A stretch of 64,000 nucleotides of DNA, from assembly GCF_045037415.1 (NCBI RefSeq), contig NZ_CP173438.1; one strand, written 5' to 3'. Below, one piece after another: positions 25,245-25,265 of this stretch (its first letter is position 1; every line of letters begins with the position of its first letter). Source of the stretch: Escherichia coli. Its GTDB lineage: Bacteria > Pseudomonadota > Gammaproteobacteria > Enterobacterales > Enterobacteriaceae. The notes beneath the pieces were generated by a model. The model was not told the DNA's origin. It did not search any database and worked only from the letters and a program-made list of their open reading frames with translations. The position numbers and the translations under genes are program-made.

Positions 25245-25265
25245 ATGTAACGGATTGCGTTACAT
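25245..25265. promoter_or_regulatory. 21-bp palindrome atgtaacg-gattg-cgttacat upstream of ytfQ; candidate operator
   Basis: 8-bp perfect inverted repeat with 5-bp spacer in ytfQ-ppa intergenic region, about 70 nt upstream of ytfQ start. Confidence 0.3.

Follow-up and report, generated by a model that had tools for sequence, protein, structure and literature searches.

CytR is, to our knowledge, the only LacI-family member of E. coli that combines variable operator spacing with action at CRP-dependent promoters, and its operators (deoP2, udp, nupG, tsx) act negatively on CRP-activated transcription. The half-sites of CytR were described as AATG(T/C)AAC and GTT(G/R)CATT (Pedersen and Valentin-Hansen 1997, as quoted in PMC5137460 and PMC3454398), and the preferred spacers between them are 2 bp (up to about 4 bp) or 10-13 bp, which place the two octamers on one face of the helix (PMC3454398); natural spacers of 0, 1 and 9 bp have also been reported. 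These operators, with their variable spacers, adjoin or overlap CRP sites and are conserved only in close relatives of E. coli. In the LacI family at large, more than 95% of the motifs have even length, palindromic symmetry, a CG at the centre and a fixed spacing (PMC4052901). The canonical GalR/GalS operator, GTGnAAnCGnTTnCAC, is likewise even and palindromic, measures 16 bp and has CG at its centre. The operators of these two regulators (galE OE and OI, mglB, galS and two at ytfQ, one of the latter putative) carry the half-site xTGTAAC and belong to carbohydrate uptake.

The transporter encoded by ytfQRT-yjfF is, as far as we know, the only bacterial one specific for furanose galactose and arabinose, and it is induced by arabinose in the gut. 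AraC regulates the operon (Stringer et al. 2014, as cited in PMC10191376), and arabinose induction of ytfQ has been reported (PMC11127945). GalR binds the ppa/ytfQ region in vivo, with a ChIP-chip ratio of 22 that ranks among the strongest of the genome in the data given in PMC5110547, and the expression of ytfQ and ytfR is lowered in a cya mutant, indicating cAMP dependence (PMC4512719). A sequence-only reading of this DNA had spoken of an as yet unassigned regulator of the transporter, a description that is overturned by the AraC control, GalR occupancy and cya-mutant effect already on record. Since sites for AraC, GalR and cAMP-CRP lie beside it, the palindrome described below would, if it is an operator, be an additional input and not the site of "the" regulator; judged from its bases, it is the site of none of these known inputs.

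The window (the whole 64-kb stretch of DNA that was analysed) contains the E. coli ppa-ytfQ region in the orientation opposite to that of MG1655. In the 309-bp gap between ytfQ and ppa, we located the inverted repeat announced by the sequence-only reading, a 21-bp palindrome ATGTAACG-GATTG-CGTTACAT (21-mer ATGTAACGGATTGCGTTACAT) at positions 25245-25265, with the ATG of ytfQ 71 bp downstream (Table 1). In the numbering of PMC5110547 it corresponds to 4449871-4449891, and in U00096.2 to about 4447894-4447914. The palindrome shares with CytR operators the inverted octamers, a CRP-like site that overlaps or lies near, and conservation in close relatives, and as a candidate it would likewise act negatively on CRP-activated transcription. 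It differs from them in its 7-bp spacer (against about 2 or 10-13 bp), in its position, since it lies over a single CRP site close to the promoter and extends downstream of it where a typical CytR operator stands between two, in its arms, which are much closer to the CytR consensus than those of natural sites, and in its target, a furanose sugar transporter instead of nucleoside genes. Its arms are the generic LacI-family half-site TGTAAC placed 7 bp apart instead of 2, so that, compared with the canonical 16-bp GalR/GalS operators, the half-sites are 5 bp further apart and the central CG is missing. TyrR boxes (TGTAAA-N6-TTTACA), compared by inspection and without a matrix, resemble the palindrome in their TGTAA/TTACA arms and similar total length, whereas they have N6 instead of N7, an inner A/T instead of C/G, and a connection to aromatic amino acids that this locus lacks.

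Table 1. Positions of the elements of the ytfQ-ppa region in the window
Feature	Position	Strand	Remarks
Palindrome, conserved unit read on the ytfQ strand	ATGTAAC 25259-25265; N7 25252-25258; GTTACAT 25245-25251	-	Candidate repressor operator
ytfQ CDS	24218-25174	-	Furanose-binding protein, first gene of ytfQRT-yjfF; RefSeq annotation
ppa	25484-26014	+	Divergent to ytfQ
-10 hexamer TATAGT, predicted, of the ytfQ promoter	25228-25233	-	Invariant in 24 of 24 sequences
CRP-like 22-mer AAGTGTGATGTAACGCAATCCG	25251-25272	-	TGTGA core at 25265-25269
Published GalR operator GTGGAAACGCTTACTT	25157-25172	-	Overlaps the ytfQ start codon; Tables 3 and 4 of PMC5110547; GalR matrix score 20.1 bits
Putative second GalR/GalS-type operator ATGAAAGCGATTACA	25305-25319 (16-mer 25304-25319)	-	GalR matrix score 15.1 bits
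AraC-type direct half-sites gAGCAGGAAAATCCATA and TAGCCGCATTTTTCATA	25325-25362 (gAGCAGGAAAATCCATA 25346-25362; TAGCCGCATTTTTCATA 25325-25341)	-	21 bp apart

Conservation of the palindrome upstream of ytfQ

Perfect inverted repeats with 8-bp arms and a spacer of 0-10 bp occur 36 times in the window, spread over about 20 places, where about 10.7 would be expected, and a bare 8-bp inverted repeat, taken alone, is not beyond chance. The 21-mer itself matches nowhere else in the 64-kb window, even when 3 mismatches are tolerated. As far as sequence comparison goes, the significance of the palindrome is carried by its conservation and not by its symmetry.

We compared 80 ytfQ loci, one genome per species; the arm counts rest on 23 Enterobacteriaceae ytfQ promoters, and an alignment anchored on the -10 box comprised 24 sequences. 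The results showed that the conserved unit is present in 22 of the 23 promoters, at a constant distance from TATAGT, and that both 7-bp arms are identical in 21, the exceptions among the 23 being Enterobacter cloacae, with one T-to-A change in the right arm only, and Pluralibacter gergoviae, in which both arms are gone and TGTGA, the CA dinucleotide and the -10 box are retained. The sequence-only reading had named conservation upstream of ytfQ orthologues as a check on its proposal, and this check was passed. The spacer measures 7 bp in all species that carry the palindrome, part of it being free to vary, as are the 5-6 bases directly downstream of the palindrome. In the anchored alignment, an invariant core GAAnTGTGATGTAACgCAnTnnGTTACAT is followed by 5-6 variable bases and then by aTTGtCTATAGTT, with zero indels, so that TGTGA, the palindrome and TATAGT stand at constant spacing. 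The unit ATGTAAC-N7-GTTACAT was found upstream of ytfQ in Escherichia, Citrobacter, Pseudocitrobacter, Enterobacter, Superficieibacter, Phytobacter and Mangrovibacter, in one Pluralibacter and in several related metagenome genomes, beginning 87-92 bp 5′ of the ytfQ ATG (201 bp in Enterobacteriaceae strain RIT691), and was absent at ytfQ of Pantoea, Erwinia, Serratia, Yersinia, Pectobacterium, Aeromonas and Vibrio. Strain RIT691 carries an insertion of about 113 bp in the predicted ytfQ 5′ leader, between the -10 box and the ATG, which spares the palindrome, the CRP site and the -10 box.

The 8-bp arms and 5-bp spacer of the sequence-only reading hold for this strain but do not stand as the functional unit, which consists of 7-bp arms and a 7-bp spacer. 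The eighth, inner pair is G:C here and G:T or T:T in other genera, and it is G:T in K-12 MG1655 and in the reference E. coli locus. The strain of the window is not K-12, and MG1655 differs from it at several positions in the region, including a T for C at 25252 that breaks the eighth pair. A 54-bp core promoter was found in 5307 of 5426 complete E. coli genomes, in which it carries no annotation; 694 of the 5307 (about 13%) are 1-2 bases off the core of the window.

Loss of the arms in P. gergoviae, with TGTGA, CA and the -10 box kept, indicates that the palindrome is a separable module, and the joint loss of both arms favours recognition by a protein. Strict conservation of the arms without compensatory change points the same way, and not to RNA pairing. 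If transcription began far upstream, for example at an AraC-dependent start, the transcript would have a long leader, in which the palindrome could instead fold into a hairpin that affects stability or translation; the 8-bp hairpin folds at -9.2 kcal/mol (z-score -2.1), and the predicted -10 box is indeed separated by more than 100 bp from the AraC sites upstream of it. However, that -10 box is invariant and stands downstream of the palindrome, and no conserved -10 box follows just after the AraC sites. An inner change from G-C to G-U preserves pairing in several species, yet T:T inner pairs also exist, and the arms show zero covariation while their flanks diverge. The stem is weak and AU-rich and has no Rfam match above threshold, and we regard the hairpin as highly improbable. 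A structured RNA or terminator was rejected for want of covariation, of any terminator found and of an Rfam match, and for a position upstream of the predicted -10 box.

A neighbouring regulator gene was sought in 14 related loci, and the divergent neighbour was ppa in all 14. In Rahnella, Pectobacterium, Serratia and Yersinia, ytfQ lies just 3′ of tRNA genes at a contig end, probably the end of an rRNA operon, and ppa is not adjacent; this location suggests that the gene moved and that its promoter was rebuilt without the palindrome. The contigs of Brenneria, Serratia silvae and P. betavasculorum, which were outside the scan, end at a similar distance.

Organization of the ytfQ promoter

Since TATAGT is the sole conserved -10-like element of the ytfQ upstream region, the transcription start of ytfQ is predicted near 25219-25223. 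The bases ATTGTC just 5′ of TATAGT (25234-25240) are conserved nearly as well as the -10 box and are not at the position of an extended -10 TG. The -35 stretch reads AATCCG, a very poor hexamer, and a generic promoter scan returned no sigma-70 promoter on the ytfQ strand, both of which suggest that the promoter is activator-dependent.

In the CRP-like site, the invariant bases are TGTGA and, in the right half, C and A (TGTGA-N6-nCAnT), and the candidate site TGTGA-N6-GCAAT of the window agrees at 7 of 10 core positions. Its centre, 25261.5, would lie at about -41 relative to the predicted start, the standard position of activating CRP at promoters without a -35 element, and CRP presumably occupies this site at ytfQ. 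A clearer homologous CRP-type site, TGTGATGCTGCTCATT, is present without a palindrome in Serratia and Yersinia, where the AraC sites directly abut it. The palindrome itself is no CRP operator, as the sequence-only reading had held: its arms give TGTAA-N9-TTACA (5-N9-5) and not TGTGA-N6-TCACA (5-N6-5, 22 bp with an even centre).

The left arm of the palindrome overlaps the CRP-like site and fills its middle; the centre of the palindrome, 25255, would lie near -35, and its right arm at about -31 to -25. Neither the middle of CRP sites nor the stretch from about -31 to -25 is normally constrained by CRP or RNA polymerase. The left-arm positions and those of the right arm in this stretch are nevertheless conserved as exact mirror images. 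This observation bears on the reading in which the palindrome is functionless, its symmetry accidental and its conservation due to CRP, RNA polymerase or DNA bending in a compact promoter. Eight-bp palindromes are indeed common in the window, the left arm lies within the CRP site, and conservation is high throughout the 60-bp core. On the other hand, the six middle bases of CRP sites and the positions from about -31 to -25 are normally unconstrained, and the two arms are conserved as mirror images. In addition, both arms decay together in P. gergoviae with the CRP and -10 elements staying, and in Serratia and Yersinia the CRP site is present but the arms are not, which makes a palindrome without function very unlikely.

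On balance, we think it probable that a dimeric protein binds the palindrome as its operator and thereby represses the ytfQRT-yjfF promoter; the palindrome has the look of a common type of repressor operator, one that overlaps an activator site. Each subunit of the dimer would contact one ATGTAAC arm. The site would cover the centre and downstream part of the CRP site (about -41) together with the -35 region, so that a protein bound there would exclude both CRP and RNA polymerase, and this repressor input would be separate from AraC and from the two flanking GalR operators. We infer the repression at the palindrome, as well as the identity of the protein, from the arrangement and likeness of these elements.

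An overlap with the -35 region could also mean the opposite, namely that the palindrome binds an activator there which aids or replaces CRP, and the very poor AATCCG and the lack of a sigma-70 promoter in the scan of the ytfQ strand would agree with such a role. A centre near -35, however, is further downstream than the usual -41.5, the overlap with the conserved CRP site makes joint binding impossible, and the loss of the arms with the rest retained in P. gergoviae is more easily understood as loss of a negative input. We consider an activator unlikely.

In the direction of ytfQ, the elements follow each other in the order AraC half-sites, upstream GalR operator, TTAAC-N6-ATTYAC-T-rich block, TGTGA with the palindrome, TATAGT, Shine-Dalgarno sequence GAGGA, and the published GalR operator across the start codon. 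The block TTAAC-N6-ATT(C/T)AC with its T-run (25274-25295), just upstream of the CRP site, is loosely IHF-like (WATCAANNNNTTR). In the Escherichia/Citrobacter/Enterobacter group only, it makes a second CRP-like half site, TGTGATTAACGTTTTA, with its centre at about -72.

We take the two direct repeats upstream to be AraC half-sites by their likeness to araI1 TAGC-N7-TCCATA; their TCCATA and AGC columns are invariant in the alignment. Between these half-sites and the upstream GalR operator there are always exactly 5 bp, and the predicted -10 box follows at a distance of more than 100 bp from them, to which many genera add a further 85-115 bp. AraC may work by displacing GalR or by breaking a GalR loop, and not by contacting RNA polymerase. 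The palindrome was rejected as an AraC site, the TAGC-N7-TCCATA repeats being located outside it.

GalR, CytR and other candidate readers of the palindrome

A GalR matrix was built from the 19 published sites as given in PMC5110547, and the two operators listed in Table 1 ranked first and second in the 64-kb window; the second of them, ATGAAAGCGATTACA, is absent from Tables 3 and 4 of PMC5110547. Both are conserved in 26 of 26 species, including those without the palindrome, ATGAAAGCGATTACA as a motif with permitted changes. The centre-to-centre distance between them in the Escherichia/Citrobacter/Enterobacter group is 147 bp, or 14.0 helical turns, which suggests a GalR loop enclosing the ytfQ promoter. 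The best score of the palindrome with this matrix was 6.8 bits, compared with 14.2-22.1 bits for the 19 published sites, and its centre reads CC, CT or TT across species. The palindrome is thus no canonical GalR/GalS operator, and the sequence-only reading was right in this respect.

The flanking position between two canonical operators invites a further reading, a third and non-canonical GalR/GalS operator contacted by repressor bound at the other two. The arms are perfect outer half-sites xTGTAAC, and the mglB operator ATGTAACCGCTTTCAA likewise has ATGTAAC as its outer half; the score, however, is 6.8 bits against at least 14.2, and a conserved central CG is lacking. The GalR ChIP-chip signal at ppa/ytfQ is very strong in the data given in PMC5110547, but the two canonical operators already account for it, and Pantoea and Erwinia have both of these operators without the palindrome. 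Because LacI-family motifs are nearly all even, with a central CG and constant spacing (PMC4052901), such a site would also be out of the ordinary, and we judge it quite unlikely.

The same rule of even length (16-22 bp), central CG and fixed spacing excludes a canonical site of GalR, GalS, PurR or Cra, the palindrome having an odd length of 21 bp and a partly variable central 7 bp. The claim that it is no PurR box was upheld by inspection, the central CG being missing. Judged likewise by inspection only, TyrR (spacing off by 1), PurR (central CG broken and without conservation), GntR/IdnR (TGTTAC, not TGTAAC), OmpR (direct repeats expected), Cra, the LysR-type T-N11-A, NtcA-like sites and LexA were rejected.

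Among named proteins, CytR is the best candidate for the binding protein, and we put it forward only tentatively. The arms gATGTAAC and GTTACATa each agree with the CytR octamer AATGTAAC (AATG(T/C)AAC / GTTRCATT) at 7 of 8 positions, and they are nearer to it than most of the natural half-sites scored (deoC, udp, nupG, tsx, cdd). The 7-bp spacer, on the other hand, misses the spacings that CytR prefers by about half a turn of the helix. The CRP-like neighbours of the palindrome are the one conserved site over its left arm and TGTGATTAACGTTTTA, confined to the Escherichia/Citrobacter/Enterobacter group. ytfQ is not a reported CytR target, and its link to nucleoside metabolism is weak; a search for CytR ChIP results or cytR-mutant expression results on ytfQ returned none. 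A scan of 314 kb of E. coli sequence, which included the deoC, tsx, cdd, nupG, udp, mglB, galS, galP and araJ promoters, gave no second copy of the motif (spacer 0-14 bp, at most 2 mismatches) apart from chance-level intragenic matches; as five of these promoters are CytR-regulated, no regulon stands behind the CytR assignment. It is quite conceivable, though short of probable, that some other, unassigned factor reads the palindrome. The operator may possibly belong to a regulator newly linked to the operon, whether a dedicated furanose-sensing repressor or CytR with a spacing shifted by half a turn, and we offer this as a doubtful but specific suggestion.

Published binding data were searched for such a factor. 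Dataset S4 of PMC8464067, a ChIP-exo collection for 34 uncharacterised factors, contains no site in the ppa-ytfQ gap, and the ChIP-seq peaks of YcjW lie elsewhere, with none in the ppa-ytfQ intergenic region. The searchable literature (RegulonDB, EcoCyc and RegPrecise being outside the search) prints neither the palindrome nor its halves, in agreement with the earlier claim that it had no assignment, and contains nothing relevant on TGTAAC/GTTACA repressor operators in E. coli. What is new here is a conserved palindrome without an assignment in that literature, at an operon for which AraC, GalR and cAMP control were already known.

The ytfQ promoter is densely packed: besides the palindrome, it contains the AraC sites, a CRP site and two GalR operators. 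Once the reader of the palindrome is named, a fourth signal would join those that control the operon. If CytR is that reader, the nucleoside regulon would extend to furanose sugar uptake and the scavenging of sugars and nucleosides would be linked; binding at the half-turn-shifted spacing would be a new CytR geometry. The palindrome is a real and conserved element of an ordinary kind and of modest general importance; it changes no general principle, and it is short, sharply defined and readily mutated.

Several further observations were made during these searches. In the ChIP-exo data of PMC8464067, YfeC has a site at 4448117-4448149 (U00096.2), which is +132 to +164 inside ytfQ or about 25010-25042 in the window, and further sites at araJ/sbcC, another AraC-regulon locus; YcjW has a site inside ppa. 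Upstream of tsx, at -163 to -144 from the ATG, there is an imperfect palindrome ACGCAATCGATTACGT that agrees with the PurR box at 13 of 16 positions and has the 9-mer AACGCAATC in common with the ytfQ palindrome, probably by coincidence. Of at least 120 metagenome matches to ATGTAAC-N7-GTTACAT, those listed comprise 3 ytfQ promoters and otherwise unrelated organisms, with no informative further site among them. Four metagenome contigs of 62-69% G+C (L082, L149, L151 and L152), from unrelated organisms, carry a longer palindrome ACATGTAACGT(A/C)(T/A)TACGTTACATGT, which is probably the operator of another regulator family. A further contig, L113, contains two identical copies of ATGTAACATACGGTGTTACAT, 38 bp apart.
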